From assembly GCA_965214605.1 (NCBI GenBank), contig OZ243961.1, positions 128,001 to 192,000 of the forward strand: a stretch of 64,000 bases of DNA, given 5' to 3'. This document shows, in pieces, positions 1 through 21,118 of the stretch; the stretch's first letter is position 1, and each line of letters starts with the position of its first letter. Below the pieces are notes generated by a model, which was not told the DNA's origin, did no database searches, and saw only the letters and a list, made by a program, of their open reading frames with translations. A program made the translations under genes and the position numbers. This DNA comes from an uncultured Candidatus Binatia bacterium (GTDB taxonomy: Bacteria; Desulfobacterota; Binatia; Bin18).

Positions 1-3387
<3,387 letters not shown>

Positions 3388-3529
3388 TCAAAGGTACGAT
3401 AGTGCGTTGTCATCGATGACAAGGCCGGCTGGAGGTGACTGATGCGAAGGGTAGGGTCAATATCATCGCGAAGTTCGTCGATCTCCAATATGCGGCGGCC
3501 GGCAGGGCAGGGTGAGCGGAGGATGCGGG

Positions 3530-3955
3530 ATGAGCGAGTTTTCGAGGTTCCATCGCATCGGTTTTGGCGGTCCCCATGGTCGTGGCGCTGGGGCTCGTTG
3601 TGAGTTGCTCAAACGTAGATGACGCGATACCGACAGGGGAAGCGACGAGAGAAGTCGAACGGTGGAGATGTGGCGACTACTTCGACGGCTGCGGCTTTCT
3701 CGCAACAGACTGCGTAACGCTGAATGCAAACTTGCTGAATAGCACCGGTGAGGTGAAGTTCAGCGGCTTCAGCGAACGAACTCGGTTTAAAATAGAGGGC
3801 ATTGAGCGTCGGCAGGATTGGTGCCTGACAGATGATTACAGCTACGATTGCGCCTGTATGATCTCCGTTGATGGCACGGGCAAATACTTTGACTTTCGTG
3901 GTTCGGATGGACGGGGGCCAAGCCCCGCGATCTGTTCAAGTGTACAAAAGGCTGA
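3530..3955 (+). pseudogene. Hypothetical Cys-rich lipoprotein, probably frameshifted
   Basis: Hydrophobic stretch plus lipobox-like VVSC. Protein-like sequence to about 3915, then a plausible C-terminus (AKPRDLFKCTKG*) lies in another frame. Confidence 0.4.
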
Positions 3956-4116
3956 GCACGGACTGAAATCAAGAGTGTCTTGGCGAGCGGAAACGGTTTA
4001 CGTTCATCAGGGTCGTTTGCCGTGCTCTGATTTCGCGATGTCCAACTCCGCCCCCGCATCCCATTTTTCGACTTGCGCGGGTTTTTCGTGGTGTGGTTCG
4101 GCTGCTCAAATCACGA

Positions 4117-4850
4117 TCAAACTTTGGGGCGGCCTGCCGTTCTCGGCCTTGGATCACGTAGCCCGCTCTGCGCGGTTCCGGCGGTTTGCAGCATCTTTCG
4201 CGTCGGCTGGCAGCGGCGGGGTTCCGCCCGGTATCCCATGGCACGGGCGATGACGGCCGCAGCCTGTGTGGCAGCATCCCTGAGCGCGCCATCGTCCAGA
4301 TGCGCGTAGATTGCCGTGGTTTCGCGCTGGCGGTGTCCGAGCAGCCGCCCGACGGTGGTGAGCCCGACACTGTTCATGACGCTCTGCGAAGCCCAGGGGT
4401 GCCGGCAATCGTGGATGCGAAGGCCTGGGAGCCCCGCCTCGTCGCGGACATCCACCCAGAACGTGTAGAGCCGAAATGTGACGGTCAATCAGGTGGCAGT
4501 TGCCTTGCCGGGTTGACGGCTGCCAGCGCCGCCCCTGGCGGGGCGTGAACTCGGCGGCGAAATCGGCGAACAGGGGGTTGGTCTCGCGCTTAGCCTTCAC
4601 GGCCGTGCGGGCGATGAGGGCTTTCTCGGCGGTGGTCTCGTCCACCGTGCCGAGGATGAGGTGCTCCGCGCCGCGCTTGTGAGCGCCGCGGACGAAGCAG
4701 GGCTCGGTGCCCTGCTTCGAAACCTTGAGGCCGAAGGTGGGCAGGTCCCTGGCCATGACGGTCAAGGCCGTTTCGTCCGCCCTGCTGCTCGCGAAAGGTG
4801 CGGCGGACCGTCCGTTCGTTGCTGGCGGCGGGGCTGCGCCTGGGCACGGC
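4117..4850 (-). pseudogene. Tyrosine recombinase/integrase remnant, internally deleted and frameshifted
   Basis: C-terminal catalytic motifs LRIHDCRH and LLGHRQRETTAIYAHL. Arm-binding-like N-terminal fragment (DLPTFGLKVSKQG) in another frame. Core-binding region is missing. Confidence 0.8.
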
Positions 4851-5343
4851 TCCGTGGTCTGTTCCCTCGGGCGCCGCCCGTTCGCAGGGAACAGGACTGC
4901 GGTTTGGGACAGACAAGGCGGCCCGCGCGGGGGAGCGTGGCCCTAGACCGGAGCGGGCCTAAGAGACTGTCGCGTAACGGAAAACGTCCGGTGGCGGCGA
5001 ACCGGTTCGGGCTCGCTCAATGCACCATCGGTGCGTGGGGTGTGAGAACCACGCGCCGATGGGCGTTCCTAGCGCGCTTCCTGACCGCTCAATCAGTCGG
5101 GTGTTGAAAGCCGTTGTGCAGTCGGCATTTAGCCCGAGCGGCGCTTGAGCGGCAGCGCCCGCCGCGCATTTGCGGAGACAATCCCCGCACCGCCGCGCGG
5201 CTTCCGAGCAGTACTATAGGAAGCATGAAGTAACAAATCAATGTGCGAAGTCTCGTTCACCGGCAACGTCATTCACTCGGCCCGCACTGCTGGCGGCGGT
5301 GCGGGCTTGTCCGTCACGGTCGACAGCAGGAGCCGTGGCACAC

Positions 5344-5377
5344 GCGCGTACGCCGCTGAACTGAGCGGCGTACGCGC
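5344..5377. promoter_or_regulatory. Perfect 14-bp inverted repeat upstream of higBA (possible antitoxin operator or hairpin)
   Basis: GCGCGTACGCCGCT-gaactg-AGCGGCGTACGCGC, about 50 bp before the higB start. Confidence 0.5.
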
Positions 5378-5424
5378 TACCGGACATTACCGAGGTCGCC
5401 GTGCGTTGTTAACCCGTGGCGCGC

Positions 5425-5698
5425 ATGATATGGAGCTTCCAGGATCGGGAGACGCGCAGCTTCTTCGAGGGGCGACGCGGCATTCCAGGGTTTCGCCAAT
5501 CAGGTGGTGCGCCGACTGGTTCTGCTGGACAGCGCGGAGACGCTCGCAGACCTTGCCGCGTTGCCGAGCAATCGGCTGGAAGCGCTACGGGGCGACCGTA
5601 CCGGTCAGCACAGCATTCGGATCAACGCGCAGCGGCGCGTCTGCTTCCGTTGGACGGACGAAGGACCGTGCGACGTGGAGATCGTGGATTATCACTGA
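5425..5698 (+). pseudogene. higB: HigB (RelE/ParE-family killer) toxin, frameshifted
   Basis: N-terminal MIWSFQDRETRSFFEG and C-terminal LPSNRLEALRGDRTGQHSIRINAQRRVCFRW...VEIVDYH lie in different frames; shift near 5480-5500. Confidence 0.85.
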
Positions 5699-5709
5699 GG
5701 GAGTTTGAC

Positions 5710-6051
5710 ATGAACGCAAGGAACGGCATGAAGCCGATGCATCCCGGAGAAGTCCTGCGCGACGAACTCGACGAACTCGACGAACTCGGGCTGTCGGCCA
5801 ATGCGCTGTCGAGGGCGTTGGGGGTGCCGGTGAACCGGGTGACGATGATCCTGAACGGCCAGCGGGGCCTGAGCGCGGACACGGCGCTGCGGCTTGCGCG
5901 GTACTTCGGGACGACATCGCAACTCTGGCTGAACTTGCAGAAGACGTGGGAGCTTCGCCAAGCGGAGATCGCGGTGGGCCACGAGATCGCGAAGTGCGTG
6001 ACGCCCCGGCAGTCGGTGGCAACAGGCACGGTGGCCGATGCCCGTTCCTGA
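5710..6051 (+). CDS. higA: HigA addiction-module antitoxin (XRE HTH)
   Basis: HPGEVL...ALGVPVNRVTMILNGQRGLSADTALRLARYFGTTSQLWLNLQ; GAGGGAG RBS. Confidence 0.9.
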   Translation: MNARNGMKPMHPGEVLRDELDELDELGLSANALSRALGVPVNRVTMILNGQRGLSADTALRLARYFGTTSQLWLNLQKTWELRQAEIAVGHEIAKCVTPRQSVATGTVADARS

Positions 6052-6967
6052 TTTTCAGTCGCTGATGCTCCCTACCCTCAAGGCGTTCGCCGGCGGTGAG
6101 GAGCTGTCGCTTTCCGAAGTCCGCGGACGGATTGCCGCTGCCGAGAGACTCTCTGCCGAAGATGTCGGGGAAATGTTCCCGAGCAGTCGGCAGGCAGTCT
6201 TCGCGAACCGTGTGAGGTGGGCCGTGTTCTACATGGAGCGCGCCGGGCTGCTGGAGCGGGTCCGTCGCGGCGTCTATCGGTTGACGCAAGAAGGTGAACG
6301 CTTGCTGTCCCGTAAGCCTCCTCGCATCGATATAAACCTGCTTAGAGAGTTCCCCGATTTCGTCGAATGGTCGCAACGGGCGAACGCTCCGCCTTCCAGC
6401 AAGGATGCGGTGTCCAAGCAGGACGAAGATACCTCCGACACGCCGGAGGAAGCAATGGACCGGGCCGCCCGACAGTTGAGCAGCGTTCTGGAAGCCGATG
6501 TGCTGCATCGGGTTCGCAATGCGGCACCCGCGTTTCTCGGACGGGTGGTCGTCGATTTGCTGATCGCGATGGGCTACGGCGGCGGTGATGCCACGATGGG
6601 CCGTATGACGGGACGTCCGGGCGATGACGGGATCGACGGCACGATCCGGGAGGACGCGCTCGGCCTGGACGAAGTTTACGTGCAGGCGAAGAAGTACGTT
6701 GAAGGCAACGCCGTGGGCGAAGGCGATCTGCGCAACTTCGCGGGCGCGATCGACGCTGCGGGCACGACCAAGGGCGTGTTCATCACCACCGCTAGTTTCA
6801 CGCGCGCTGCGAAGGATTACGTGGCGCGGAGTCCGAAGCGGATCGTGTTGATTGACGGCGAAGAACTGGCGCGCCTTATGGTCCGGCATGGAATCGGCGT
6901 GCGAAGGTGGCACTATCACGAGGTCAAGCGAATCAACGAAGACTACTTCGAGCAGGAAGCGCCGTAG
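6038..6967 (+). CDS. mrr: Mrr-family Type IV restriction endonuclease
   Basis: Mrr N-terminus (MPVPDFQSLMLP...NRVRWAVFYMERAGLL) and catalytic GDDGIDG...VYVQAKKY, GVFITT, LIDGEELARLM. Confidence 0.92.
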   Translation: MPVPDFQSLMLPTLKAFAGGEELSLSEVRGRIAAAERLSAEDVGEMFPSSRQAVFANRVRWAVFYMERAGLLERVRRGVYRLTQEGERLLSRKPPRIDINLLREFPDFVEWSQRANAPPSSKDAVSKQDEDTSDTPEEAMDRAARQLSSVLEADVLHRVRNAAPAFLGRVVVDLLIAMGYGGGDATMGRMTGRPGDDGIDGTIREDALGLDEVYVQAKKYVEGNAVGEGDLRNFAGAIDAAGTTKGVFITTASFTRAAKDYVARSPKRIVLIDGEELARLMVRHGIGVRRWHYHEVKRINEDYFEQEAP

Positions 6968-6970
6968 GCC

Positions 6971-7232
6971 GTGCGCCTGTCGCGGAACGAGGTTCGCGTC
7001 CGGGCCGCCGCCTTTCGCGGAGGCCTGACGGGAGGCGGCTTACGAGAAGGGCGAAACGCAGAGCTTCTACCACGCCTTCTTCGACGGGCTCGGAGTGCGG
7101 CGGCGGCGGGGCGGCGCGCGCTACGAGGCGCCTGGCGCCAAGTTGGACAACCGCTCGGGGTTCAGCGCCCTGTTCTGGCCGGGCGTGCGGCTTGGCGAGC
7201 AGAAGAGCGCCGGGCGCGATCTGAAGGCGGCC
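6971..7232 (+). pseudogene. N-terminal fragment of an MmeI-like Type IIL R-M enzyme
   Basis: MRLSRNEVRVRAAAF, then in a shifted frame YEKGETQSFYHAFF...LFWPGVRLGEQKSAGRDL, resembling the MmeI-family nuclease domain. Truncated. Confidence 0.7.
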
Positions 7233-7240
7233 TCCGGTCC

Positions 7241-7276
7241 GGCCCGACCGATGTTGAAATAGTGGACTACCATTGA
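7241..7276 (+). pseudogene. higB: C-terminal stub of a second HigB toxin
   Basis: Encodes GPTDVEIVDYH*, the HigB terminal motif, immediately before the second higA. Confidence 0.7.
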
Positions 7277-7289
7277 GAGGAGGCATGAA

Positions 7290-7682
7290 ATGCGTGACCC
7301 CATCCACCCCGGCGAGACGCTGCGCGAGGATCTCGCCGCGCTCGGCATGAGCGCGGCGGAGTTGGCGCGGCGGATCGAAGTGCCGGTGAACCGCGTCACC
7401 GAGATTCTCAACGGTCGGCGGTCGGTCACCAGCGACACGGCCCTGCGGCTGGGGCGTTTCTTCGGCACCTCGGGGGAGTTCTGGCTCAACCTCCAGAAGC
7501 TCTATGAACTGCGCCTTGCGGAACAGAAGCACGGGACGACGATCGCCCGGCTACCGACACTGGAAGCCGGTACGGATCTGCGCGACCGGTTAAGTGCCGA
7601 CCGCTCACAGGCCGACGATTCAAACGATGGCCAGGTCGCTCGTGGGGTCGCAGAGCGAAGGGTCGGCAGCGCGCATCGCTAA
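7290..7682 (+). CDS. higA: HigA antitoxin (second paralog, extended C-terminus)
   Basis: MRDPIHPGETLREDL...VPVNRVTEILNGRRSVTSDTALRLGRFFGTSGEFWLNLQ; GAGGAGG RBS. Confidence 0.88.
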   Translation: MRDPIHPGETLREDLAALGMSAAELARRIEVPVNRVTEILNGRRSVTSDTALRLGRFFGTSGEFWLNLQKLYELRLAEQKHGTTIARLPTLEAGTDLRDRLSADRSQADDSNDGQVARGVAERRVGSAHR

Positions 7683-7806
7683 AGATGGATGATAAAAATT
7701 GCGATCTACGTCTTGGATACCTTGGGACGATGGGCCTACTGGTGCTCTTTCCGCTTGGCGCTGATTTCGATGAATACGGCGTGGAGCCCCGTCTGGCGTT
7801 GCAGTT

Positions 7807-8505
7807 ATGACTGAAGCGCAGATCAGCCTCGATCTCGCGGGAAGACCGACTGCCCGCGCCATCCTTGACCGTATTCGTTCCGAGAGCCGCGACGAGTCCG
7901 AGAAAGGGCGCTGGTTCGAGCAGTTGTTCATGCGCATCGCGCTTCAAGAGCCCGAGTTCGAAATCGGCGATATCTGGCGCTGGCCCGACTGGCCCGAGCG
8001 GGAGGCACTGATCGGACTCGATGGCCGTGACATGGGCATCGATCTCGTGGCCCGGCGGACCTCAGGGGAATGGGTCGCCATCCAGTGCAAGTGCTATGAC
8101 GACCGGCATATCCTGCGTAAAGGCGAGATTGACAAGTTTCTCGGCGGCTGCAGCCCGTGTTCCGTCTGCGTTGGATCGTGGCGACGTGCCGGTGGGGACC
8201 GATTGCGGAGCGTGCCATCCAGAACGTACATCCGCAGGTCACACAGATCGACTTCCGCCAACATCTTGATGTTCAGGTCGAGGAACGGGACGCCAAACGG
8301 CCAGTGCAGAAGCTTGGCCGCTTCAGGAGGAAGCGGTCGAGGATGCCGTCGGCGGGCTGGCCAATCACGACCGGGGCCGTCTCATGATGGCCTGCGGCAC
8401 CGGCAAGACCTTCACCGCCCTTCGCATCGCCGAGGAGATCGTTCAGGACGGACAGCGAATCCTCTTCGCGGCGCCGACCATCGCGCTGGTCTCTCAGGCG
8501 CGACG
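7807..8505 (+). pseudogene. Type ISP-like R-M enzyme (Mrr-like nuclease + SF2 helicase), frameshifted and truncated
   Basis: EKGRWFEQLF...DMGIDLVA...AIQCKCY nuclease, then MACGTGKTFTALRIAE...ILFAAPTIALVSQ helicase start, spread over three frames. Ends abruptly. Confidence 0.8.
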
Positions 8506-9225
8506 CGATGGCGCCTTCGCGTATGAGCTGCAACTGCGGCATCTCCGGATCGGCCAGCGTCTCGCCGGAGATCGTGCGCCAGGGCTTGAACCACTCACGC
8601 CCTGCCGTCAGCGTACCGATGCGCGCTTCCCCAGCCCGTCCGAGACGATGAGCGCCGCGTTGAAGGCGAACAGCGAGGGGATTTCCGCCTTGTAGGTCTG
8701 CAATTGCCGGAATGCGGCGTCGATCGTGGCATTCTCGTCGACGGGGTTCTTGAGCTCAATCACCCCGAGCGGCAGGCCGTTGACGAACAGTACGATATCG
8801 GGGCGCCGCTCGTGCTTGTTCTCGACCACCGTGAACTGGTTCACGGCCAGCCAGTCGTCATCGGCGGGCTCGTCGAAGTCGATCGCACGGACCTGCGCCC
8901 CCCGGATCAAGCCGTCCGCGATGCGGTGCTCCACCGTCACGCCATCCACGACCATACGGTGAAAGGCCCGGTTACGGGCCTCCAGCGTGGTTCCTTCCGA
9001 ACGGATCAGCTTGCGGAAGGCGTCGTCGAGTGCCGCAGCGGGAAGGTCGGAGTTCAGCCGAGCCAGGGCATCGTGTAGCCGTCTTTGCAGCACGACCGCA
9101 CGGTAGTCCGCGCGTTCGGCGCCGGGCCTGTCGGGGGCGATCTTCGGACCATGGGCGTTGGATCAGCCAGGGGCCTCCAACCATTCCAGCGCGGCGGTTT
9201 CGACGTCGGATTCTGAAAATTTCAC
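8500..9225 (-). pseudogene. hsdR: Type I R-M restriction subunit HsdR, N-terminal remnant
   Basis: MKFSESDVETAALEWLE, then an early stop; WLAVNQFTV...[21 protein letters not shown]...[13 protein letters not shown]; shifted continuation [18 protein letters not shown]. No helicase part. Confidence 0.88.
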
Positions 9226-9839
9226 GCGGTGGCCTCGGCGATGGCATCGAGTAAGACCGCGAAGCTATGGGACCGATTGCGTGCCGGGTCGATATGTCGG
9301 CCGATATCGGTGGCCGCCTGCACCTTCGGTATTCCCTGCTTGAAAAAGCCGTGCCTTTGCAGGACACGCTCGAATGTCTCCCAGGTGCCGCCTGTGATCG
9401 CGTCAGGGTTCCGGTAACGAGCTTGGTTTGGAATATTCGGCGATACGCGCGGATAGGCGCCACATACAGCTTGCCAGTCGCCGAAATACCAAGCCTCAAG
9501 CTCTTCGATCGCGATGCGGATTACGACTTGCCAATCAGGGCCGCCGCCGGCCCGCCTCGACCGCAGCCCGGCACGATCGCAGACCTTCTCAAGTCTGGAC
9601 TTGAGCTCCTCGCAATCGTCTCCGTCGCGGTCCACGATCACCACAATACGGTACTCGTCCGGCATCCATGCCGCATAACCCTTGAGGCGATCTCCGATCT
9701 TTCGCAACAGGGCGTCCTTGCCTGGGTACGGGTAAATTTTAAACGTGCAATTCTCTGGAAGCACCCGTGGCAACCAGGCAGCGAGAAACGCTTCCATGGA
9801 AAGTCCTTCCACGTGAAATTCGAAATGGGAAGCAGACAT
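9222..9839 (-). CDS. DUF4276-family protein (TOPRIM/RloB-like putative nuclease)
   Basis: FHVEGLSMEAFL (TOPRIM Glu), IVDRDGDD (DxD), IEELEAWYFGD, NRSHSF. Intact ORF from the ATG at 9839. Confidence 0.8.
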   Translation of the reverse strand: MSASHFEFHVEGLSMEAFLAAWLPRVLPENCTFKIYPYPGKDALLRKIGDRLKGYAAWMPDEYRIVVIVDRDGDDCEELKSRLEKVCDRAGLRSRRAGGGPDWQVVIRIAIEELEAWYFGDWQAVCGAYPRVSPNIPNQARYRNPDAITGGTWETFERVLQRHGFFKQGIPKVQAATDIGRHIDPARNRSHSFAVLLDAIAEATA

Positions 9840-9841
9840 TC

Positions 9842-11080
9842 TCAGTGGTCGCCTCCTCTCCACGCCGGCATTCCGCCTCCGGTCAACGGATCTCCGACTC
9901 CGAAATGCCCCTCCATCCATAGGTCGCCCAGTTGAGCGCCGGCGTCCATGAACGCCTTTACCTTTTCGTCCCGGTCCAGCGGATGACACCGCGTATAGCC
10001 GGATTCGTCGCGCCACAGCACCCGCACTTCATCTGGGCGCAGCGCGTCGAGAAAGAACGGCGAGTGGGTGGTGACGAGGACCTGCGTGGATCCGGCCGCC
10101 CTTCTGCATTCTTCCGCCAGCCCGTAGAGCAGACGGGGATGCAGGAAGTTCTCCGGCTCCTCGACGCCGATAAATGGAGGCGGAAGCGGGTCGTTCAGCA
10201 ACACGAGATAGGCGAGCATCTTGAGCGTGCCGTCCGATGCGAAGCGGGCCGTAACTGGTTCGGAAAATGGGGCGTCCTTGATTTGCAACAGAAGCCTGCC
10301 GTTAGGCATCTGATCCGCTGTGACGTTCTGAATCTTGGGGACCCGTTCCCTAAGCCTGTTGAAAATGAACTCCAGACGCGCAGGATGCTCTTCCGACAGA
10401 TACTGAATCACGTTGGCGAGATTGTCCCCGGTCTTGCTCAGCCGCTCCTCCGGTCCCGCTTCCGGCTGTTCCCTGGCCTCCTGGGACGAGAGATAGGACA
10501 TATGCCATCCCATGATGAAATTCCTGAGCGCTACGATACGGGGATTCTCCGCCAATTGGCCGAGCGCGTTGACCGCAAGGGTATCGGGAGCACTCAGGGG
10601 AACTTCGATCCGCTCGTCCTGTGCGTCCGGCAGTTCGCCGGAAATGACCCGTCCCTTTCCGTCGGCGTAGTCGAGAAACCTGAAAGGTGCTCCATCGCTT
10701 CCCCGCCTCCATCGAAGCCATTCCCCGGCCACGATGGGGCGACCGTTTCTCTCATCCACTTCGAGGTGATAAGTGATCAGGGAGCTACGTGGTTGTTCGC
10801 GATAAGCAATTTCGATCAGAACAGGACCCTCTCCGCCCCGCGATTTCAACTCCCGCGCCCTGCCACGTCTTTCCCAGGCCCGACGCAAACCGCTCTCGAA
10901 GCATTCAGCCAGAAAGGCAAAAACATCAAACACCGTGGATTTTCCGCTACCGTTGGGACCCAGCAGTGCGGTAAGCGGCGTCAGACGCGTGAACTCGACA
11001 TCTTGCAGCGCACGAAAATTCCCTACCTTGAGGCGCTCGATTCTCGGCGGCGCCTCCCCTTTCGTCGTCATTTCGTTCAT
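9842..11080 (-). CDS. ABC-type (AAA_21/AAA_15) ATPase
   Basis: NFRAL, Walker [10 protein letters not shown], signature-like ASDGTLKML, Walker [12 protein letters not shown]-loop VTTHSP. Start overlaps the hsdS stop (TAATG). Confidence 0.92.
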
Positions 11081-12281
11081 TATGCCATTTCCGTTGATCG
11101 AAAGATGCTGGCCACACGCAGCTTGCCGACAATCAAATTGGGAAGGAGCAGATCGCGGGTCTGAACAAGCGAAGCAGATTGCTTGGTGTTCGTGGCGATA
11201 CGATCGTAAAGTGGGCGAACGACGTCTTCCCATGCGGCGAGGATTTCCTTAGAAGGAATCGTTACCGGAACGGGTCGAAACGCCTTCTTGCTGATTTCGG
11301 CGAATGCGGAGCCGCCCGAGATATCCTTAGATGTAGTCAAGGTTTTCACAGCACCAGAACAGAACGTATAGGTTTGGCAAGCGTTTTTCGCAGGCCATGG
11401 CGATGAAGCCTTGGTTTATGGTAGTTGGCAGCTCGGCAATTGCCAGGTAACCGATAGGAGTGTGCGGTGACAAAAGCACGGTGCCGACCGCAAGGAGGCT
11501 GGAGCTGATCTTCTTCACGCCCGCGCTGGTAATCTTCCCATCCGTTTCCAGCAACACAGGCGACGTCGGCTTCGAAAGGTCCTTCGGCGTGGCCCGGTGC
11601 TGCTTGTCTTCGTGCCAATAGGCGGATTCCTTCATACTTAGGAGTTGCGCCTCCCACAGCATGGACTTCCTTACCAATCTCCGAAACCTCCCCCCCAATC
11701 GGTACGTCCTGGTCGTCGAGGGCGTCGGGGAAAAGATCCGCGATGTCCTGGGGCAGCCCGGTATCGCGGCCTGCCATCTTGGCGCGGACAGGGTCGAAAT
11801 CGACGAACCACGACTTGAACAGGGCGCGCGCCGTCGCCTCCAGCGTCTCGTTCATGCGCCGGTTCAACTCAATCTTGTCGTCCAGGGTGCCGAGGATATG
11901 GGCGATGGCCCGCTGTTGTGACACGTCGGGCACGCGCAAGTCGCACGCGTGCGCTTCTTCACGATTGAGGCCGGGAACCGCGCTCTCGAAGGTTAGGTTT
12001 TGCAACCCTATGGATTGGAGAGCATCGTATTGGAATCCAACGGACTCAGCACCCTCTCCCGTGACATAAAATGTCGTGTCAAGAGGCCAAACTGGTGGGG
12101 ACGAGTAATGAACAGCTCCCACCATTCCTGTGCGTCCGATGAGGACAGGCGGCCCACTTGTGAGTGCGACATCATGATAAGCAATAACACCGTTGGAATC
12201 GAACACGGGCATGTCCCCCGCTGGATTTCTCTTCCCCTTTGGGAAACGCTTGCCATAAGAAAACGGGGCCAATTTCCCCAC
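11080..12281 (-). pseudogene. hsdS: Type I R-M specificity subunit HsdS, multiply frameshifted
   Basis: Conserved linker [47 protein letters not shown]2 pieces ([25 protein letters not shown]) fall in several frames. Confidence 0.88.
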
Positions 12282-12321
12282 GGTTGTCTTAACGGGCCCA
12301 TTGGTCGTGCGTGAGTTGTGC

Positions 12322-12655
12322 TAGGGCGGCCTGCCGCATTCGGTTCTCGGCGCGTACACCACCACATACTCCCGCTTGATCTCGCGGTGGAAGCGCTCCG
12401 GGAGGCCCGCCCAGTCCCTGCGACCAGGAAGGGGATGCTGGATTGGCGCAGCGCCTCCTCGAACGCCGCCAGACGGTCGGCCGGGATTGTCTTCAAGTCC
12501 GGACCGCGCAGCGCGAGGTCGAGATCGCTGCCGGCATGGCTTCGCCCGTTCACGCGGCTGCCATAGGCCCAGACCTCGATACCAGACAGGTGCTCCCGCA
12601 CAAGCATTTCCAGCACCGCCCGATGCCTGGGCAGAAGATGCAGCCTGTCAGTCAT
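12322..12655 (-). pseudogene. Minimal nucleotidyltransferase (MNT) antitoxin, frameshifted
   Basis: VWAYGSRVNG...SDLDLAL motif. The C-terminus DWAGLPERFHREIKREYVV is in another frame after about 12420. Confidence 0.8.
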
Positions 12656-13064
12656 CCGCCGCCTCAAGCACACCGGCCAGCGCCTTCGCGTCCACGATGA
12701 AGGTCGGCAAGAGCTTCATCGTGGATTCGGCGAAGCCTGCGCCATAGTCGTGCGCCGTGCGATTGTCGCGATAGGCAAGCCAGCGTTCTGCGGCATCGGC
12801 TTCGATCAGTCCGTGCCTGGCGGCGTGGCGAAACAGGTCCTTGAAGGTGAGGCGATCCGCCTGCCGGTTGGTCGCGAAGTAGGCGGCAAGACGCTTTCGC
12901 AGAAGCTTGCCGCTCTGCTCCAGCACCAACTCAAACTCCTTGACGCAGGCGGCGCGGTATATGTCATAGACGAAATCGTTCGTCTCCCGGTGCTCGCCGA
13001 TCCCGCCCAAGGCGAGTTCCAATGTGCCGATGCAGCGGCGCAGAGAGGCGGTGTCGATATTCAT
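12648..13064 (-). CDS. HEPN (HI0074 / NTase substrate-binding) toxin-family protein
   Basis: RAACVKEFELVLEQSGKLLRK...FKDLFRHAARHGLI...WLAYRDNRTAHDY; coupled to the MNT gene. Confidence 0.85.
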   Translation of the reverse strand: MNIDTASLRRCIGTLELALGGIGEHRETNDFVYDIYRAACVKEFELVLEQSGKLLRKRLAAYFATNRQADRLTFKDLFRHAARHGLIEADAAERWLAYRDNRTAHDYGAGFAESTMKLLPTFIVDAKALAGVLEAADD

Positions 13065-14015
13065 GATCCGTGTTCCCGGAAGCCTAGCGCCTTGAGGTTT
13101 TCGGCAATCGCCGCGTCGAGCCCGGCCCCCTCCGCCTGCTGTTCTCTCAACTGCGCGACCAGCCGTTGCATTGTGTCCTCGAACGGCTCGGCGGCGTCCT
13201 CCTGCGGCGCGGCGCCGACATAGCGATCGGAGGTGGGCCCATGGCCGTGCCGGCGTATCTCGTCGAGCGATGCGCTCTTGCGGAAGCTGGGCATATCCGC
13301 GTAGTCGGCCACGCCTTCCCCACCCCGCCAGGCATGGTAGGTGTCGGCGACGCGGGCGATGTCCTCGTCCCTCAGCCCGCGATGGTGCGGTCCATCATGC
13401 GGCCGCGCGGGCGGGCGTCGACGAACAGCACCGCGCCGCGGCGGTCGCGAAACCTGCCGCCGCCCCGGTCCCGCGCCACAAACCACAGGCGGGCCGGGAG
13501 CTGGGTCAAGTAGAAGAGCTGACCCGGCAGGGCGACCATCCAGTCCACCAAGCCCGCCTTGATCAAGGCCTTGCGGATCGCCCCCTCGCCGGACTGGGTG
13601 GACGATAGGGAACCGTTGGCCGCCACCAAGCCGGCCGTGCCGCCCGGTGACGGATGATGGACGATGTGTCGTACCTGGGCGAAGTTGGCCTTGCCCTTGG
13701 GCGGGGCGCCAGACTGCCCGCGCTTGTCGTCGGCGAGCCGCCCGCCGCCCCAGTCGGAGACGTTGAACGGCGGGGTGGCGAGGATGAAGTCGGCTTTGAG
13801 GGCGGGGTGGCGGGCGTTGTGGAAGCTGTCGTCGTGGGCGATCTGCCCCTCGATGCCGCCGATGGCGAGGTTCATCTTCGCGAGCCTCCAAGTGGTATAG
13901 TTCGACTCCCGGCCGTAAATCAAGATGTCGGCCCCGGCGCCCCTCGGGACTCTCCCGCCATTGCCGTTGCCGGCGGCATGCGCCCGGATGAACGCGACCG
14001 ACTGGACGAACATGC
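13061..14015 (-). pseudogene. hsdM: Type I R-M methyltransferase HsdM, 5'-truncated and frameshifted
   Basis: [34 protein letters not shown] (NPPF changed to TPPF), ALPGQLFY. C-terminal DIARVADTYHAWR...EPFEDTMQRL is in another frame. Confidence 0.9.
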
Positions 14016-14178
14016 TGGGAAGACGCCTAGGCCGGTCTGGGTTGGGATACGATTCTCGGAGCAACGATCTGCTGCGCAGGCGACCGGTATAGGGCCGCCT
14101 GAAGGGCCGCTTGCCGCCCGACAAAGCAATGTCCAATCAGGTCATCTGGGCTCTAAGACGGCTCCTGGACCGACGGCC

Positions 14179-15387
14179 TCAGGTCCAGGCACCCGAGTCG
14201 CTAGAGCGGTAACCGAGCGCCCGATACACCGCGTCCACCAAGCTCTGGCCACGCTCGTTGAGCGATGCGCCCGCACCCATCCGGTTCATCGTGTAACCAA
14301 AGGACATGCCAGCTTTTGGATCGGCAAAACCAAACGACCCTCCCGCACCAACATGACCAAAAGCCTCTTCAGAGGTCAACACGCTGTCCTGTACCCCCAT
14401 CGGCTCGCCACGATTGTCCATGGTTTTCATAAAACCTAGGGCGAACCGGGTCGGCATGATCAGCACCGCGTCTCGGCCGGTTGATGAGGACACCCGGCCC
14501 ATCTGAGCCAGCGTGTCGGCGTTAACCAGCTCGACTCCGCCTTTTTTGCCGCCCAGGGCAAGGGGTTCGTACATCCCGGCGAGTCCGCGGGCGTTGGTAA
14601 TACCGCCGGCGCCACCAATCTCCGCCGCGTGCGCCGCCCGCGTGTCATACTCTGGTTCGGCGCCCATATAGCCTCCAGAGTTGAGCAGTACAAGGGATTG
14701 AAGCGAGCCGGGGTTGGCGATTTCCCGGAAGAACAGGCTGTTCGGATCCGGCTCGGCCGCAATCATCGGCGCAACCCGTGCCTCTTTGTCCTCGGGCAAA
14801 CCAATCCAAAAGTCTAAACCGAGTGGATTGGCGATTTCGTCCCGAAAGAAACTCCCCAGCGATTTGCCGGACACCCGCCGAACGACCTCGCCAACTAACC
14901 ATCCAAAGGTCAGAGCGTGATAGCCGTTCCGAGTGCCAGGTTCCCAAAACGGTTCTTGTGTGGCCAGCGTATTGACCATGAGATCCCAGTCGGCGTAGGC
15001 TCCCTGGGGCAGGGGGTCGCGTACCGCCGGCAGACCGGCTTGGTGATTGAGCAACATTTTGACTGGAATATTTTCTTTGCCGGACTGGGCAAACTCCGGC
15101 CAGTACCGGGCCACCGGGGCATTGAGGTCGAGCTGACCCCGTGAGGCGAGGATATGGGCACAGATCGCTGTTGCCCCTTTTGTCGAGGAAAAGACAATGC
15201 TGACCGTGTCTTCATTCCAGGCCGCTCCGGTCTCGACGTTGGCCTTGCCGCCCCATAGATCAACAACGGTGTGGCCTTGGACGGTGACGCACACCGAGGC
15301 GCCAACCTCACCACGCTGTTCAAAATTGCGCTCAAACTCCTCACGGACGGCTTGAAACCTTGGCTCACAGCTTCCATGAACTTCCAT
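14179..15387 (-). CDS. Serine hydrolase, beta-lactamase/EstA family
   Basis: VDLWGG, FSSTK (SxxK), [25 protein letters not shown]. Confidence 0.93.
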
Positions 15388-15432
15388 TCTTTCCTCCTTA
15401 ACTCAGCACAGAGTCCCGCTGACGGGAACGTG

Positions 15433-16455
15433 TCAGACATTCTGCTCTTCTTGACCCTCACGGGTATACTGCCGAACGAGCTTGTCCAGCAAATCCTGTC
15501 CGGCACTGACCGGAGCATAGCGGGCCGGATGGGCACGGTCGACGAGTGTCTCAAACGGGGCAATCACGGTGTCGTAGTTAGCGGTCAGGAAAAACGCGAT
15601 GGCTTGGCGGCGGGCCGCCGGGTCGGTCGGCACTAAGACACGGTGCTGGGTTGAGACCCATCTGTTGTTGGTCCACTGTTCCATCATATCGCCGATATTG
15701 ATCTGAATACCGTCCGGCACATAGGGGACGTCTTCCCACTCGCCCGCCCGTGTCTTGACCTGTAGTCCTGGACCGTCGGCAGTCACTAGGGTGAGCGTAC
15801 CGTAGTCGCTGTGTGGGCCAATCCGGAACTGGTTGGAACGCGGTGGCGTGGTGAGGGCAGGGTAATCCAGCACGCGGAGGAAATTCATGCTCTTATCGAG
15901 TTTGTCGGCAAAATAGTGTTGGGGTAAATCCAAGGCCAGGGCAAAGATCTCCATGAGGCTCAGGGCTAAGGCTTCGCCCGCGGCAGAGTACTCGGTCAAT
16001 ATCGACCGGAACCGGGCGGGGCGGCCGGGCCAGATGTTCGGCTGAAACATCTGGCGGCCGGTTTCACAGCTGTAATACGGGTCGCGTTCATCAACGTCCA
16101 TGCGACCCATGGTAAAATTTGCTTTCAGGTCTGGGGCCGACTCGTCATGGTGGGCGTAGGCAACCCGCTCTGCCCCGACCGGATTATAGCCCATAAAGCT
16201 GTGAGGAACCTCGCAGTAGCGAAGCTTTTCGTCTTCCGGCAGATCGAAAAACTCTCGGGCGATCTGTAGGGTACGGGCTTGAAGATCGGGCGCGATGCCG
16301 TGTCCGGTAATGACAAAAAACCCAATGGTTTCAAGCGCCTGTCTGACCTGCTCAATAACGGCGTGCCGACCGTTATCGGGCCGGGGCGACCCGTGCGTTG
16401 CCCCAGCACGAAATAGGGCGATGTCAATAACCGGAACCGTCTCGGATGATCCCAT
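15433..16455 (-). CDS. 2OG-Fe(II) oxygenase, isopenicillin N synthase-like family
   Basis: VPVIDI, GFFVITGHGI, PHSDYGTLTL (HxD), NIGDMMEQWTN, STQHRV. Confidence 0.92.
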   Translation of the reverse strand: MGSSETVPVIDIALFRAGATHGSPRPDNGRHAVIEQVRQALETIGFFVITGHGIAPDLQARTLQIAREFFDLPEDEKLRYCEVPHSFMGYNPVGAERVAYAHHDESAPDLKANFTMGRMDVDERDPYYSCETGRQMFQPNIWPGRPARFRSILTEYSAAGEALALSLMEIFALALDLPQHYFADKLDKSMNFLRVLDYPALTTPPRSNQFRIGPHSDYGTLTLVTADGPGLQVKTRAGEWEDVPYVPDGIQINIGDMMEQWTNNRWVSTQHRVLVPTDPAARRQAIAFFLTANYDTVIAPFETLVDRAHPARYAPVSAGQDLLDKLVRQYTREGQEEQNV

Positions 16456-16481
16456 CGCTAGACCTCCTGTGTCTCAAGATG

Positions 16482-16895
16482 TTAGCGCCACTCGTAGATT
16501 TGGCCGCTGATTTCCATGGTCGAGAAATTCCCCAAGCCTTCAAAGCCGGCTATAGTGGTATTGAGCCAGGCGTAGGTTTGAGAGCGGGTCCTGAACTTGA
16601 CTGTTGTGCCGAAGCGGACCCGTCCGTCCCCGAGCGGCACGCTCATCCCCCCCGATTCGACCAGAATTGTCTCGCCCTGTTTGGTCGTCCAGATGCCGTA
16701 GTATTTTGTAGTGCTTGTCCCGTCCGGGTGGATCTGGACATAGTTGCTGCCGATTGCCGAGGTGTGCAGCCGGCCGGTCGAGGTTCCCGTCTGGGTGACC
16801 TCGTATTTGGCCCCAAACTCGGTGCCCTCAAACGGTAAGACTTTGACCGAAGTGATGGTGCCGGTGTACTCGCACAGTAATTCTCCAAGCGGCAT
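16482..16895 (-). CDS. Hypothetical beta-barrel protein (DUF3237-like)
   Basis: Beta-strand-rich 137 aa with a FRTRSQTYAWLN motif; GGGAGGG RBS; co-oriented with the two downstream genes. Confidence 0.7.
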   Translation of the reverse strand: MPLGELLCEYTGTITSVKVLPFEGTEFGAKYEVTQTGTSTGRLHTSAIGSNYVQIHPDGTSTTKYYGIWTTKQGETILVESGGMSVPLGDGRVRFGTTVKFRTRSQTYAWLNTTIAGFEGLGNFSTMEISGQIYEWR

Positions 16896-17034
16896 AGTCC
16901 GGGCCCCTCCCTATCCTAGGCCATACCACACTCCTGTCACGGCGGCAAAGCCGCTCCCCGCACTAGCCTTGCGTCGCTGGACGCTGTAGCCTGTTATCAC
17001 CTCTCCAGTGAGGACGCAGACGGCACGGTGATCT

Positions 17035-17655
17035 ATGAGCAATCCCCCTAATACAATCGTCTTCCGCCCTATGGTGGCCGCCGATGTCGGCACGGTGCCC
17101 ATCACCCACCAGGGCGAACTCGAAGAGGTGCGTCAGCGCATTGGTGATATCGGTTCCAGTGCGATTCTAGCGTTTGACGGCTCGCAACACGTCGGCCAAC
17201 TCCAGTTTCGCCGCTATGTCCCCGGTACCCGCTCGCCCCAGGGTTTGTGGCATCCCCTGTACTGGGCCGATTTTGGAGACCGGGGTGTAGGTTTGCCTGA
17301 ACAAACCTTGGCCGTATTTTGCTACCATGTGGGCCAGCTTGATGACACGGATGACAGAGACCCTCGTTATCAGGGCCGCGGCATTGGGCTCCGTCTGCTT
17401 GATGTCCTGCTTGACTGGGCGACTCGGGCCGGGTTTGAGGCGCTGGTGGCCAAAGCGGTTCCGGCTCCCCGTTCTATCATGGCTTTCATGGGCGGCCAAA
17501 CCACCCAAGCCTACCAGGGGCGCGGTTTTCAGCCGGTGGCCAGTTGGGTTGATGCCGAACTCAAAACGCTCGTTATTGACAGAGGGCTCGTCCCGTCTGG
17601 TATGAGCCCCGACGAGGCCGCTCGGGTGAGCTGTGTAGTGCGGCGTTTAGGCTAG
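17035..17655 (+). CDS. GNAT-family N-acetyltransferase
   Basis: Acetyl-CoA motif PRYQGRGIGLRLL and YQGRGF. Confidence 0.8.
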   Translation: MSNPPNTIVFRPMVAADVGTVPITHQGELEEVRQRIGDIGSSAILAFDGSQHVGQLQFRRYVPGTRSPQGLWHPLYWADFGDRGVGLPEQTLAVFCYHVGQLDDTDDRDPRYQGRGIGLRLLDVLLDWATRAGFEALVAKAVPAPRSIMAFMGGQTTQAYQGRGFQPVASWVDAELKTLVIDRGLVPSGMSPDEAARVSCVVRRLG

Positions 17656-17850
17656 GCTTGAGCGGTCGTGGTCATGGGGGTTTTAAGTGCGACGTCAAGT
17701 GAAATGACCGTGGGAGCCCGCAGTGCTGAGCGGTCCCGCAAAAAAGTCGCCTGGGGTGGGTCAGCCGCTCGTCTTGAGTCGGGCGCTTGCGTGCCATGAG
17801 AGAAGATGGCACTTATCTTAGCCTCAACATCGCACAGGAGGAATGCTCGT

Positions 17851-19038
17851 ATGAGAGAAGCTGCCATCGTCTCTACCGCCCGGACCCCAATCGGAAAAGC
17901 GTATCGTGGGGCGTTCAATGATACCTCAGCACCGACCATGGCCGCCCCGGTCATCAAAGAAGCCCTCAAACGGGCGAAGGTCGAACCGAGTGAAGTCGAC
18001 GACCTCATTATGGGGGCGGCTCTGCAGGAAGGCACTCAGGGGTTTAATGTCGCTCGCCAGTGCGCTCTAGCGGCCGGACTGCCAGTCAGTGTTTCGGGCC
18101 AGACAATCGACCGCCAGTGTTCTTCAGGTCTGATGAGCGTCTCAATGGCGGCCAAGCAGATCATTGCCGATGGCATGCAGACCGTCCTAGCGGGTGGTAT
18201 TGAGTCAATCAGCCTGGTACAGAACGAACATCAGAACGTCTACCGGAGCGCCGACACCATTGCCCTGGCCAATGCGCCTGACCTGTACATGGCGATGATT
18301 GATACGGCCGAGGTGGTCTCCAAGCGCTACAACATCTCGCGTGAAGCGCAGGACGAGTACGCCCTCCAGAGCCAGATGCGGACGGCCGAGGCACAGCAGG
18401 CTGGGCGTTTTGACGACGAGATTATCCCCGTCAGCGTGACCAAGCTGTTTACCGATAAGGAGACCAGAGAACAGACCCGCCAAGAGGTCACCATCGGCCG
18501 AGACGAGTGTAACCGGCCGTCCACCACCGCGTCGGGCCTGGCAGCGCTGCCGCCGGTCATGGGCGAGGGGGGCTTTATTACGGCCGGCAACGCCAGCCAG
18601 CTGTCAGACGGCACCTCGGCCTGTGTGCTCATGGAACGTCAATATGCCCAGGAACGCGGTCTTGAACCGCTGGGCATGTATCGCGGTATGGCCGTGGCCG
18701 GGTGTGAGCCCGACGAAATGGGCATTGGCCCGATCTTTGCCGTGCCCAAGCTGCTCGAACGCAACGGGCTCACCATGGACGATATTGACCTGTGGGAGCT
18801 GAACGAAGCCTTTGCCTGTCAGGTCATTTACTGCCGTGACCAACTCGGTATTCCTAACGACAAGCTGAACGTGAACGGTGGTGCGATCTCGATCGGGCAT
18901 CCGTACGGTATGAGTGGCTCCCGCATGGTTGGACATGCCCTGATCGAGGGCCGACGGCGTGGGGCACGCTACGTCGTTATCACGATGTGTGTCGGTGGCG
19001 GTATGGGTGCGGCTGGTCTGTTTGAGGTGGCCTTATGA
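17851..19038 (+). CDS. Acetyl-CoA C-acyltransferase (thiolase)
   Basis: [37 protein letters not shown]; AGGAGG RBS. Confidence 0.96.
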
Positions 19039-19224
19039 TTATGCCCCTGAACAAAGGACGCGTCTCTTGCCGACGGGCAGCTGAAGCCCCGTGAGCTGCC
19101 TTATGAAGAAGACTCCTTGGCGTTCCCTCTGGCAGCAAGACCATTGACCCACGCCAGCCCAAAGAGGGTCATAGGGGAGTGGGCACCGTCTCTTGGTGTC
19201 AGGTGAGTTTTTAACCCTGAGCCG

Positions 19225-19257
19225 ATAAGCCGAAGATTTTCTTCGGCTTATTTTTTT
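19225..19257 (+). terminator. Rho-independent terminator
   Basis: Perfect 12-bp stem ATAAGCCGAAGA-ttt-TCTTCGGCTTAT followed by a T run. Confidence 0.85.
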
Positions 19258-19996
19258 ATCGGGTGGTTTTCTTGGAGGTCTGCCTATATCGGCGAGCAAT
19301 TTTCATCGCTAGATATGTCGATGTGTTGACATAAAGAATGAGGAGTCCGGGTGGACTATCCCAAAATTCGTCAATGGGATAGCCACGGCCATTGCAACCA
19401 AAACGTCGCCTGGGCTGGATTTATTCCGGACGCATCACCGCGACGGCCTCCCTTGTAGAGCAGTCCTCTCAGCGACCCTGAAAAGGACCGTTAGGCAAAC
19501 ACTTGTTCCTCAACAGGCTCATATTGAACGTTTTCGGCGAAGAGAAGGCCGGGGAAGCGATAAGCGCGTCCAGTACGAGTATTGGCCCGGCCTCGACTGC
19601 TTACCACGCTCATGCTTCTCCGCTGGATTCTCCCTCAGTTCCAGGCCATCACCCCAGGACCGCTCCTTGGACGATTGAGTACTTTCTGCTTTGTCTTGCC
19701 CGGCAAATTTCTCCCTCTTGGCTCTCTTAGGAATAGCGGACGAGAGCTGTCCTAGAGATGAGAATTTTTCTAGTCGGATGGCTTGCCTGTAGGCTGTATT
19801 TCTCTATCCGCTCGGACCTTCTCTCTCTTAGAGGCTGCCACACTTGCTGTCCTATTGCTTAGGAGAGCTCTCCAGTACGACATCTCTGGCAGTTTTTCGA
19901 GGTCTGGCACTGGCTGAGGGGGGATTTCATGCTCTTGACAGGACTCATGGGTGTCTGCTCCTGTGGGAGCAAACGTTTCTCAAAGGGGGAGCAGGT

Positions 19997-21118
19997 ATGC
20001 GATTCATCGACGGTGATGGGCATTTTATCGAACCATTGGACGTATTTGAGCGGTATACGGATCGAGCCTTCCGCGAGCGGACTATGCGGATGGGGGAAGA
20101 CGCCGAGGGGATCAAGCGGCTCATTGTCGATGGCAAACCCATGCAGACGATTGATGTAGACGAGCTGCTAGCAGCAGTCGTCGGCTACGGCCAGAAAGAG
20201 GCCGGCAAGGACTTGTCCACTTTTGACCGCTACTTGGGGTACTCCGATGCCTGGCAAGATATGGGCAAGCGCGTCACCTATTTAAACGAAGAGGGCTTTG
20301 ATTACCAAGTCATCTATCCGACCCTAGGTCTGTTCTGGGAGGGACAGGTCGAAGACCCGTATTTGGCCGATGCCCTGTGTCGCGCCTATAATACCTGGGC
20401 CTTTGAAATATGCGCCGGCCGCCTTGACCGCCTTATTCCGGCCGCCCATATCTCACTGCGCGACCCAGACTTGGCCGTCCGCGAAATGGAACGGGTGGCC
20501 AAGCTCGGGTGTCGGACGATCTTTATTGCGGCCGCTCCGATCAACGGCAAAAGCTTTGGGCATCCGGATTTTGATCCGGCCTGGGCCACTGCCCAGAGCC
20601 TAGACCTCAGTATCGGCCTCCACCTGGTCATCCACGGGAAATACACCGGCAGTGAGTATTACGAAGGGGTGAATCCGGGCTTCATGTACGTAACCATGAA
20701 CATTATCCAGGACCCGCGTCAGGCCCTGACCACGCTGGTGTATGACGGGGTGTTCGAGCGTTTTCCCAAACTGCGCGTGGCCACTATTGAAGCCATGGTC
20801 GGCTGGGTCGGCGAATGGCTGGAGCGGCTCGATTATCGCTTCAAGTACATGGGCCACACTTCGCAGATGAAGCGACCGGCGAGCGAATATCTGGCCCGCA
20901 ATATCTGGATCAATGGGGACCCGGAAGAGAAGATGTTTCCTTTGATGGTGCAGTTTCTGGGCGACGACCGCTTTTTTACCGGCTCGGACTATCCCCACGC
21001 GGAAGGCTTTGTGCAGCCGATTCAGAAAATCCGCAAGGTGCTGTCGTCACTGCCGACCGCGTCGGTGGATAAGGTCTTGGGCGATAACGGGAGGAAGTTC
21101 TACGGGATTCGTTCCTAG
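19997..21118 (+). CDS. Amidohydrolase_2-family protein
   Basis: IDGDGHFIEP, VIYPTLG, RAYNTW, FERFPKLR, GSDYPHAEG. Confidence 0.92.
   Translation: MRFIDGDGHFIEPLDVFERYTDRAFRERTMRMGEDAEGIKRLIVDGKPMQTIDVDELLAAVVGYGQKEAGKDLSTFDRYLGYSDAWQDMGKRVTYLNEEGFDYQVIYPTLGLFWEGQVEDPYLADALCRAYNTWAFEICAGRLDRLIPAAHISLRDPDLAVREMERVAKLGCRTIFIAAAPINGKSFGHPDFDPAWATAQSLDLSIGLHLVIHGKYTGSEYYEGVNPGFMYVTMNIIQDPRQALTTLVYDGVFERFPKLRVATIEAMVGWVGEWLERLDYRFKYMGHTSQMKRPASEYLARNIWINGDPEEKMFPLMVQFLGDDRFFTGSDYPHAEGFVQPIQKIRKVLSSLPTASVDKVLGDNGRKFYGIRS

Follow-up and report, generated by a model that had tools for sequence, protein, structure and literature searches.

An intact copy of the candidate anti-phage module HEC-01 among the remnants of a Type I restriction-modification operon in an uncultured Candidatus Binatia bacterium

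The HEC-01 pair and the decayed operon around it

The window analysed here is a stretch of 64,000 nucleotides (nt) from an uncultured Candidatus Binatia bacterium (assembly GCA_965214605.1, contig OZ243961.1, positions 128,001 to 192,000), and it contains two adjacent intact genes, for an ABC-type ATPase and a small DUF4276 protein, between the remnants of hsdS and hsdR of a Type I restriction-modification (R-M) operon. Judged from its sequence, the pair belongs to HEC-01, a candidate anti-phage module that is already catalogued and is of the split-OLD kind. The two genes are as follows:

11080-9842, minus strand: HEC-01A, ABC-type ATPase, 412 amino acids, intact (ATG at 11080, TGA at 9844-9842; uninterrupted open reading frame, ORF)
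9839-9222, minus strand: HEC-01B, DUF4276 TOPRIM-like nuclease candidate, 205 amino acids, intact (ATG at 9839, TGA at 9224-9222)

The TAA of the final hsdS frame (11082-11080) has an A in common with the ATG of the ATPase gene (TAATG), the ATPase and DUF4276 genes lie on the same strand with a 2-nt gap (9841-9840), and the TGA of the DUF4276 gene overlaps the GTG of hsdR (9225-9223) as GTGA. In Pfam, the ATPase matches AAA_21 (1.2e-29) and AAA_15 (6.6e-16) and has no further domain, and the small protein matches DUF4276 (2.9e-26) over profile positions 1-191 of 192, its sole Pfam match at E<=0.01. The motif columns were taken from an alignment of 68 homologues. Invariant in the ATPase are Walker A (G41/N43/G44/S45/G46/K47), Q175, S282/G284/T285, the Walker-B region (E307/E308/P309/E310) and the H-loop (T337/H339/S340/P341), and invariant in the DUF4276 protein are E11, D70-x-D72 and E113-x-E115. 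An earlier note on this DNA, made from the letters alone, had described two uninterrupted ORFs with catalytic motifs, tightly packed against hsdS, each other and hsdR; the junctions are exact, and none of the catalytic residues invariant in the family is missing.

The assignment to HEC-01 comes from PADLOC (PADLOC-DB v2), in which the ATPase matches HEC-01A (PDLC04182) at 5e-156 and 517.8 bits (residues 12-397, profile positions 2-404 of 406) and the small protein matches HEC-01B (PDLC04202) at 2.1e-79 and 264.3 bits (residues 5-203, profile positions 2-200 of 204). The earlier note had offered the pair as a new system, a claim to be dropped on a match to a known one, and it is dropped here, since both proteins match near end to end a family that PADLOC already has. 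HEC-01 is the Hma-embedded candidate 01, described by Payne et al. as an ABC ATPase together with a TOPRIM-like protein inside Hma operons, and the PADLOC model is credited to the same preprint (bioRxiv 10.1101/2024.01.29.577857). The window copy has the same two-gene architecture, with the ABC ATPase followed by the TOPRIM-like protein, and both it and the original members sit in a DNA-modification-based defence operon; however, the family was defined from Hma operons, whereas the window copy is in a Type I R-M operon, since decayed. The defence role of HEC-01 is unsettled, as one representative, that of the discoverers, is reported to have given no protection against any phage tried (10.1101/2024.01.29.577857) and another is reported to be protective against one or more of T4, T5 and T7 (10.1101/2024.09.26.614923). 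DUF4276 has been placed in the Toprim superfamily and equated with Mad4 (PMC12065111), and the AAA15/21 tree of the PARIS paper (PMC11464382) shows it among the partner classes. Among the papers listed by the literature search there was no mechanistic study of HEC-01 itself.

The genes on both sides of the pair are broken or are inserts between broken genes. The remnants were compared by blastx with intact homologues from related loci (e.g., the HsdR of locus L091), and the features are:

13079..14013, minus strand: hsdM remnant (Pfam N6_Mtase 6.6e-44; PADLOC MTase_I 1.6e-67)
12648..13064, minus strand: NTase_sub_bind (HEPN-like) ORF, 138 amino acids, open, between hsdM and hsdS (PF08780, 4.4e-12)
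12422..12673, minus strand (ORF 12008-12673): nucleotidyltransferase (MNT-like) partner, C-terminal end unsettled (weak NTP_transf_2, 1.8e-4)
11083..12293, minus strand: hsdS remnant (Pfam Methylase_S; PADLOC Specificity_I 1.8e-44)
8498..9225, minus strand: hsdR remnant (Pfam HSDR_N 9.6e-35; PADLOC REase_I 1.6e-42)
7807..8500, plus strand: Type IIG restriction-methyltransferase fragment, first ~15% of the gene, frameshifted and truncated (Mrr_cat_2 and ResIII in two overlapping frames)

The match of hsdM begins at homologue residue ~219 (window position 14013), so that ~218 N-terminal codons are gone; a frame change near 13384 leaves homologue residues 219-424 and 425-526 in two frames, and the catalytic NPPF motif reads TPPF. 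The hsdS gene falls into three frames (its blastx segments being 12293-11634, 11638-11330 and 11346-11113), with changes near 11636 and 11340. The GTG within the GTGA overlap opens hsdR, which meets an in-frame TGA at its codon 21 (9165-9163) and shifts frame near 8626-8630, with 9225-8623 in one frame and 8629-8498 in another when compared with L091. Its match ends at ~8498, at about residue 289 of ~1090, where it abuts the broken Type IIG gene on the opposite strand. These truncations, frameshifts, stop codon and TPPF bear out the several lesions per gene that had been noticed in hsdM, hsdS and hsdR, and the full-length HsdM with NPPF and the HsdS and HsdR in open frames that a functional Type I R-M system would have are absent. 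The lesions are local and real and not assembly errors, because contigs of two metagenome runs from different studies (X1 and X5, either of which may be the window's own source sample) have 0 differences over the lesion sites and because the remainder of the window is filled by long open ORFs.

Some further observations concern these remnants. The Type IIG fragment matches PADLOC REase_MTase_IIG at profile positions 6-102 and 192-246 of 1646. This gene (7807-8500, plus strand) and hsdR (8498-9225, minus strand) converge and both are without their 3' parts, which suggests that one deletion took the 3' ends of both. The HEPN-like ORF has 76% identity to its counterpart in a related gammaproteobacterial locus (L015), with a ratio of nonsynonymous to synonymous substitution rates (dN/dS) of 0.13, and the nucleotidyltransferase matches L091 by blastx over 12646-12422 with 73%; the same HEPN/nucleotidyltransferase insert is present in L015. 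The region with the hsdM remnant (13001-14000) has a G+C content of 0.67-0.69, versus 0.56-0.61 for the pair and hsdS, and many of the changes at invariant residues of hsdM (Q>R, N>T, W>G, L>P, C>R and D>A) need A/T to G/C substitutions.

Predicted folds and comparison with known systems

The AlphaFold2 model of HEC-01B, made from the 68-row alignment, has a mean predicted local distance difference test score (pLDDT) of 91.3 and a predicted template modelling (TM) score of 0.89, and consists in the prediction of a four-stranded alpha/beta core followed by helices. Against the PDB it gave five significant matches, all of them to OLD nucleases of Xanthomonas and Burkholderia, in their C-terminal TOPRIM regions, with 6njw and 6nk8 as top folds (E 5e-5 to 7e-4, TM 0.45-0.53); by sequence, a phmmer search of the PDB with the DUF4276 protein gave no match at E<=1. 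For the HEC-01A model (AlphaFold2, pLDDT 79.6), the nearest folds are PtuA of Septu and of retron systems, Thermus OLD and SMC heads. The PtuA chains are the top fold matches (E ~1e-13), there is a PDB sequence match to 8ee4 (2.8e-10), and the protein also matches the ATPase of Ts OLD by sequence. The predicted complexes of the ATPase and the DUF4276 protein, with a 68-row alignment for each, scored 0.36, 0.06 and 0.09, the mark being 0.32.

To our knowledge, MAD3-MAD4 of the MADS system of Pseudomonas aeruginosa is the sole characterised pair of an ABC ATPase and a DUF4276 protein, and it is the closest characterised analogue of HEC-01, as it likewise combines an ABC/P-loop ATPase with a separate DUF4276 TOPRIM-like protein. 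The fold neighbours given for MAD3 and MAD4 (PMC13662399) are the same as those of the HEC-01A and HEC-01B models, with PtuA and SMC in common for the ATPase and Xcc and Ts OLD for the nuclease. The acidic E, DxD and ExE pattern of HEC-01B may correspond to the acidic pocket of MAD4. MAD3-MAD4 is described as a 2:2 heterotetramer, in which MAD4 is insoluble alone and MAD3 inactive alone, with ATPase activity and Mg2+/Mn2+-dependent nicking and linearisation of plasmids; toxicity is reported on co-expression only, and the coupling of ATP hydrolysis to cleavage is left open in that account (PMC13662399). The analogy is nevertheless distant. The ATPase fails the MAD3 equivalog NF047739 of NCBIfam (111.5 bits versus a cut-off of 420) and reaches 83 bits with PADLOC mad3 versus 518 for HEC-01A, and HEC-01B has no mad4 match at E<=0.01. 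The window is also without the eight-gene mad1-mad8 operon, the flanks being instead the hsdS/hsdR/hsdM remnants, the HEPN/MNT pair and the Type IIG fragment, in which the sole mad match is a weak one (33 bits) of mad2 to the hsdM remnant.

PARIS is likewise a two-gene system of an ABC ATPase (AAA_15/AAA_21) and a TOPRIM effector, and its authors' AAA15/21 tree, as mentioned, includes DUF4276-linked systems. However, its effector AriB belongs to DUF4435, and no AriB model is among the eight PADLOC matches of HEC-01B; for PARIS, Ocr is known as a trigger and tRNA as a target. The ATPase matches AriA (PDLC02980) at 1.2e-27 and 95.7 bits, far under HEC-01A, which reflects the common AAA_21 superfamily only, and membership of PARIS was rejected on these grounds. 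The earlier note had called the pair PARIS-like with a different TOPRIM family, and what remains of this is the combination of an ABC ATPase with a TOPRIM partner other than DUF4435.

Class 1 OLD nucleases (P2 Old and Xcc, Bp and Ts OLD) and GajA of Gabija were also compared, the HEC-01B model being most like the C-terminal TOPRIM-plus-helical region of OLD and HEC-01A resembling the Ts OLD ATPase in both model and sequence. In these proteins the ATPase and the TOPRIM are fused in one chain, whereas the window pair consists of two ORFs with a stop codon and 2 nt between them. PrrC in EcoprrI is likewise a defence gene bearing an ABC-type ATPase in the slot between hsdS and hsdR, and it is described as being kept silent by EcoprrI (10.1101/2024.01.29.577857). 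In contrast to the window ATPase, whose TOPRIM partner is separate, PrrC carries an anticodon-nuclease domain at the C-terminal end of its one polypeptide; moreover, most HEC-01 relatives are outside R-M operons, and the window copy has outlived its own. In Septu and retron PtuA-PtuB, PtuA provides the best fold matches of HEC-01A, but PtuB is an HNH nuclease and not a TOPRIM protein, and the ATPase scores 45 bits with the NCBIfam model of PtuA, for which the cut-off is 500.

Relatives, selection and rival explanations

At least 558 relatives were found in many phyla, and the related loci counted here are the best 80 of these, with 58-85% identity. Relatives occur in 10 plasmid records and one phage record. 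A match to HEC-01B follows HEC-01A directly in 73 of the 80 loci, and both genes are full ORFs in 67, adjacent and co-oriented with gaps of -4 to +33 nt. The Type I R-M context was searched by tblastn (E<=1e-6), the queries being intact copies of HsdM, HsdS and HsdR taken from the loci themselves. A largely complete Type I R-M system surrounds the pair in 15 loci, always in the order hsdS, pair, hsdR (15/15), with hsdR present in 13 and the locus ending before it in the other two; the slot between hsdS and hsdR pointed out earlier is therefore the regular one for embedded copies. In 60 of the 80 loci no Type I R-M match was found near the pair with these queries, which divergent Type I families and other R-M types would escape, and this tells against the idea in the earlier note that the pair guards R-M. 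A cruder typing, by the single longest downstream ORF, gave HSDR_N in 9/76 loci and many ORFs without a family, as well as housekeeping genes, DarT, Macro, a methylase and TPR proteins.

In five loci from unrelated taxa (L024, L029, L062, L077 and L086), an intact pair has no R-M neighbour but short matches to the tail of hsdS or the head of hsdR. Such loci could come from repeated erosion of the host R-M operon or from a cassette that moves together with pieces of its flanks.

The closest counterpart of the whole arrangement is in L015, a gammaproteobacterial metagenome-assembled genome, with hsdM, HEPN, hsdS, the pair and hsdR as in the window. The synonymous divergence (dS) between the window and L015 is 0.86 for A, 1.21 for B, 0.66-0.99 for hsdM and 1.12 for HEPN. 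Since the layout is the same and dS is of the same order for all parts, the hsdM-HEPN/MNT-hsdS-HEC-01A/B-hsdR block was most likely inherited together. Just downstream of the intact pair of L015 (L015:11053-11595) there is also an open frame of 181 codons, in which about the first 50 residues of an AAA_21 ATPase are joined to the last two thirds of a DUF4276 protein, and which has the look of another HEC-01 copy that collapsed through an internal deletion.

Purifying selection acts on both genes across the family. Between the window copy and its nearest relatives, dN/dS ranges over 0.10-0.17 in A and 0.12-0.19 in B, at dS of 0.7-1.0 and above. At columns conserved in at least 95% of the sequences, the window copy differs in 2/168 (A) and 2/45 (B), all four differences being conservative (V>I, D>N, Y>F and L>I) and none exceeding the spread of the family. 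Whether selection continued on this copy after the R-M genes died can be judged against the remnants themselves. The internal control used columns invariant in 10 intact homologues, from loci that also carry hsdM. The hsdM remnant is altered at 20/111 of its invariant columns (0-9 in the 10 others), with changes that include the N>T of NPPF, two losses of W and two L>P, whereas A is altered at 5/199 and B at 3/53, that is 8/252 for the pair (Fisher P=4e-6). In addition, five point lesions per 2,874 nt of R-M remnant would predict 3.2 in the pair (1,859 nt), which has none (P=0.039).

It is proposed here, with a probability of about 0.7, that the pair is an intact and autonomous HEC-01 copy, inherited as part of a block, which has outlasted the decayed R-M operon around it. 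The block of hsdM, the HEPN/MNT pair, hsdS, HEC-01A/B and hsdR would have arrived as one unit, and the Type I R-M operon would then have decayed, the pair retaining every invariant residue. By analogy with MAD3-MAD4, HEC-01A and HEC-01B would assemble, probably as A2B2, with HEC-01A as a putative sensor and scaffold, and the TOPRIM subunit HEC-01B may cut nucleic acid in a Mg2+-dependent manner upon a phage cue. The analysis shows the identity, intactness, packing and fold of the pair, the decay of the R-M genes and purifying selection over the family; the complex, its substrate and its trigger are putative, and so is expression of the genes today. The module would be autonomous, HsdMSR being neither required nor restraining. 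An intact HEC-01 in a thoroughly decayed Type I R-M operon, together with the five loci with similar fragments, amounts to a natural experiment, which argues that HEC-01 neither needs the restriction complex nor is restrained by it. The models are thereby narrowed: a split-OLD nuclease that acts autonomously gains weight, and a masked guard in the style of PrrC loses it. For the rest, the find mainly confirms that HEC-01, a widespread candidate defence module, is real, mobile and conserved, and no new class of system is opened.

Several observations weigh against this proposal, besides the distance of the ATPase from MAD3 and the lack of protection reported by the discoverers of HEC-01. With one lesion per R-M gene, the first, left out of the count as ascertainment, the pair would be expected to have only 1.3, and the probability of none is 0.27. 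The dead hsdR stub is altered at just 1/59 invariant columns, and because it is as clean as the pair, clean conserved positions are no proof of selection; its difference from the drift of hsdM (P=0.001) is unexplained, as is the order in which the R-M genes died. The R-M remnants have dN/dS values (0.19-0.39) that overlap with those of intact controls (0.16-0.38), and since they are barely above them the R-M decay, on sequence grounds, is recent on the scale of these comparisons. The 5' end of hsdM is gone and with it the presumed promoter of the operon; a co-oriented gene lies at 14179-15387. A or B is split or truncated in five of the 80 loci (L013, L014, L032, L039 and L081), of which L013 and L014, with a broken B, are among the closest relatives of the window, and the small gene is absent in six loci despite available sequence, one more stopping at a contig end. 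In the same genus, an ATPase copy lies in three frames (G003:C140:10047-11257). Another genome of the genus has an ATPase cut to its last ~170 residues (G005:C8:4458189-4458707); these two copies have 60-73% identity. A sigma-70 consensus scan of 8400-15600 gave 0 promoter-like sites where 1.7 are expected by chance, so it is uninformative.

Much of this would suit a pair that has been a useless passenger since the loss of the R-M system or of the promoter, and that is intact only for lack of time to decay. The conservative lesion count, the clean hsdR stub, the remnant dN/dS close to that of intact controls, the lost 5' end of hsdM and the broken B of L013 and L014 are all compatible with it. 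It accounts less well for hsdM, a gene of the same operon with radical changes among its 20/111 when all 8/252 in the pair are conservative, for the all-lesion count, and for the intact pairs beside hsdS and hsdR fragments in the five loci of unrelated taxa, and it is considered unlikely. The claim in the earlier note that the pair stayed under selection after the death of R-M is thus upheld in part, by the contrast with hsdM, and checked by the hsdR stub and the conservative count; continued purifying selection on the pair is probable but not proven.

A different possibility is that the pair is a restriction guard resembling PARIS or PrrC, in which the ATPase senses anti-restriction proteins or the loss of HsdMSR and frees the nuclease. 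The constant position of embedded pairs between hsdS and hsdR is that of PrrC in EcoprrI, as described in 10.1101/2024.01.29.577857, the ATPase and TOPRIM logic is shared with PARIS (PMC11464382), and a direct sensor of anti-restriction proteins would require no R-M partner. Yet the pair is without a nearby Type I R-M match in most loci, often among housekeeping neighbours, the AriA match is weak and AriB is unmatched, and the intact pair, having outlived HsdMSR, does not fit easily with a PrrC-like nuclease that the restriction complex must silence; such a guard is improbable. The narrower variant in which HEC-01 is a direct, PARIS-like sensor of phage anti-restriction proteins, with a readout that does not pass through HsdMSR, would explain the constant slot in embedded copies as well as continued selection and the repeated outliving of the host operon, in the window and the five loci. 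It is itself a doubtful candidate; if true, the window would be a natural knock-out showing autonomy, with no silencing by the restriction complex. Finally, the assembled complex could be toxic and the cassette a selfish or addictive module that persists and spreads for itself and not for host defence. The reported toxicity of co-expressed MAD3-MAD4, with either protein harmless alone (PMC13662399), would agree with this, as would the strong horizontal mobility implied by the number of relatives, their spread over phyla at such identity and the plasmid records. No antitoxin-like logic is seen, however, the toxicity of the analogue needs both partners, broken and B-less copies exist without apparent penalty, and one HEC-01 representative is reported to be phage-protective (10.1101/2024.09.26.614923), so that a purely selfish role is very improbable.

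The surrounding island

The region of 3.5-14.2 kb, within which the autonomous HEC-01 copy proposed here lies, looks like a decaying genomic island. It includes a broken phage-type integrase and two HigB/HigA-like pairs (4117-4765, minus strand; 5504-6051, plus strand; 6971-7682, plus strand), the HigB being partial and the ORFs of the helix-turn-helix antitoxins open in these pairs. No tRNA gene was found in positions 1-20000 of the window. The island also has an intact full-length Type IV Mrr-like enzyme (6038-6967, plus strand) with Mrr_N and Mrr_cat domains, which matches PADLOC mREase_IV at 2.5e-75 over profile positions 1-317 of 317. Both methyltransferase-bearing systems of the island, Type I and Type IIG, are thus dead and the methyl-directed enzyme is intact, and it may be speculated that m6A methylases came into conflict with a methyl-directed nuclease, which would have favoured their loss.

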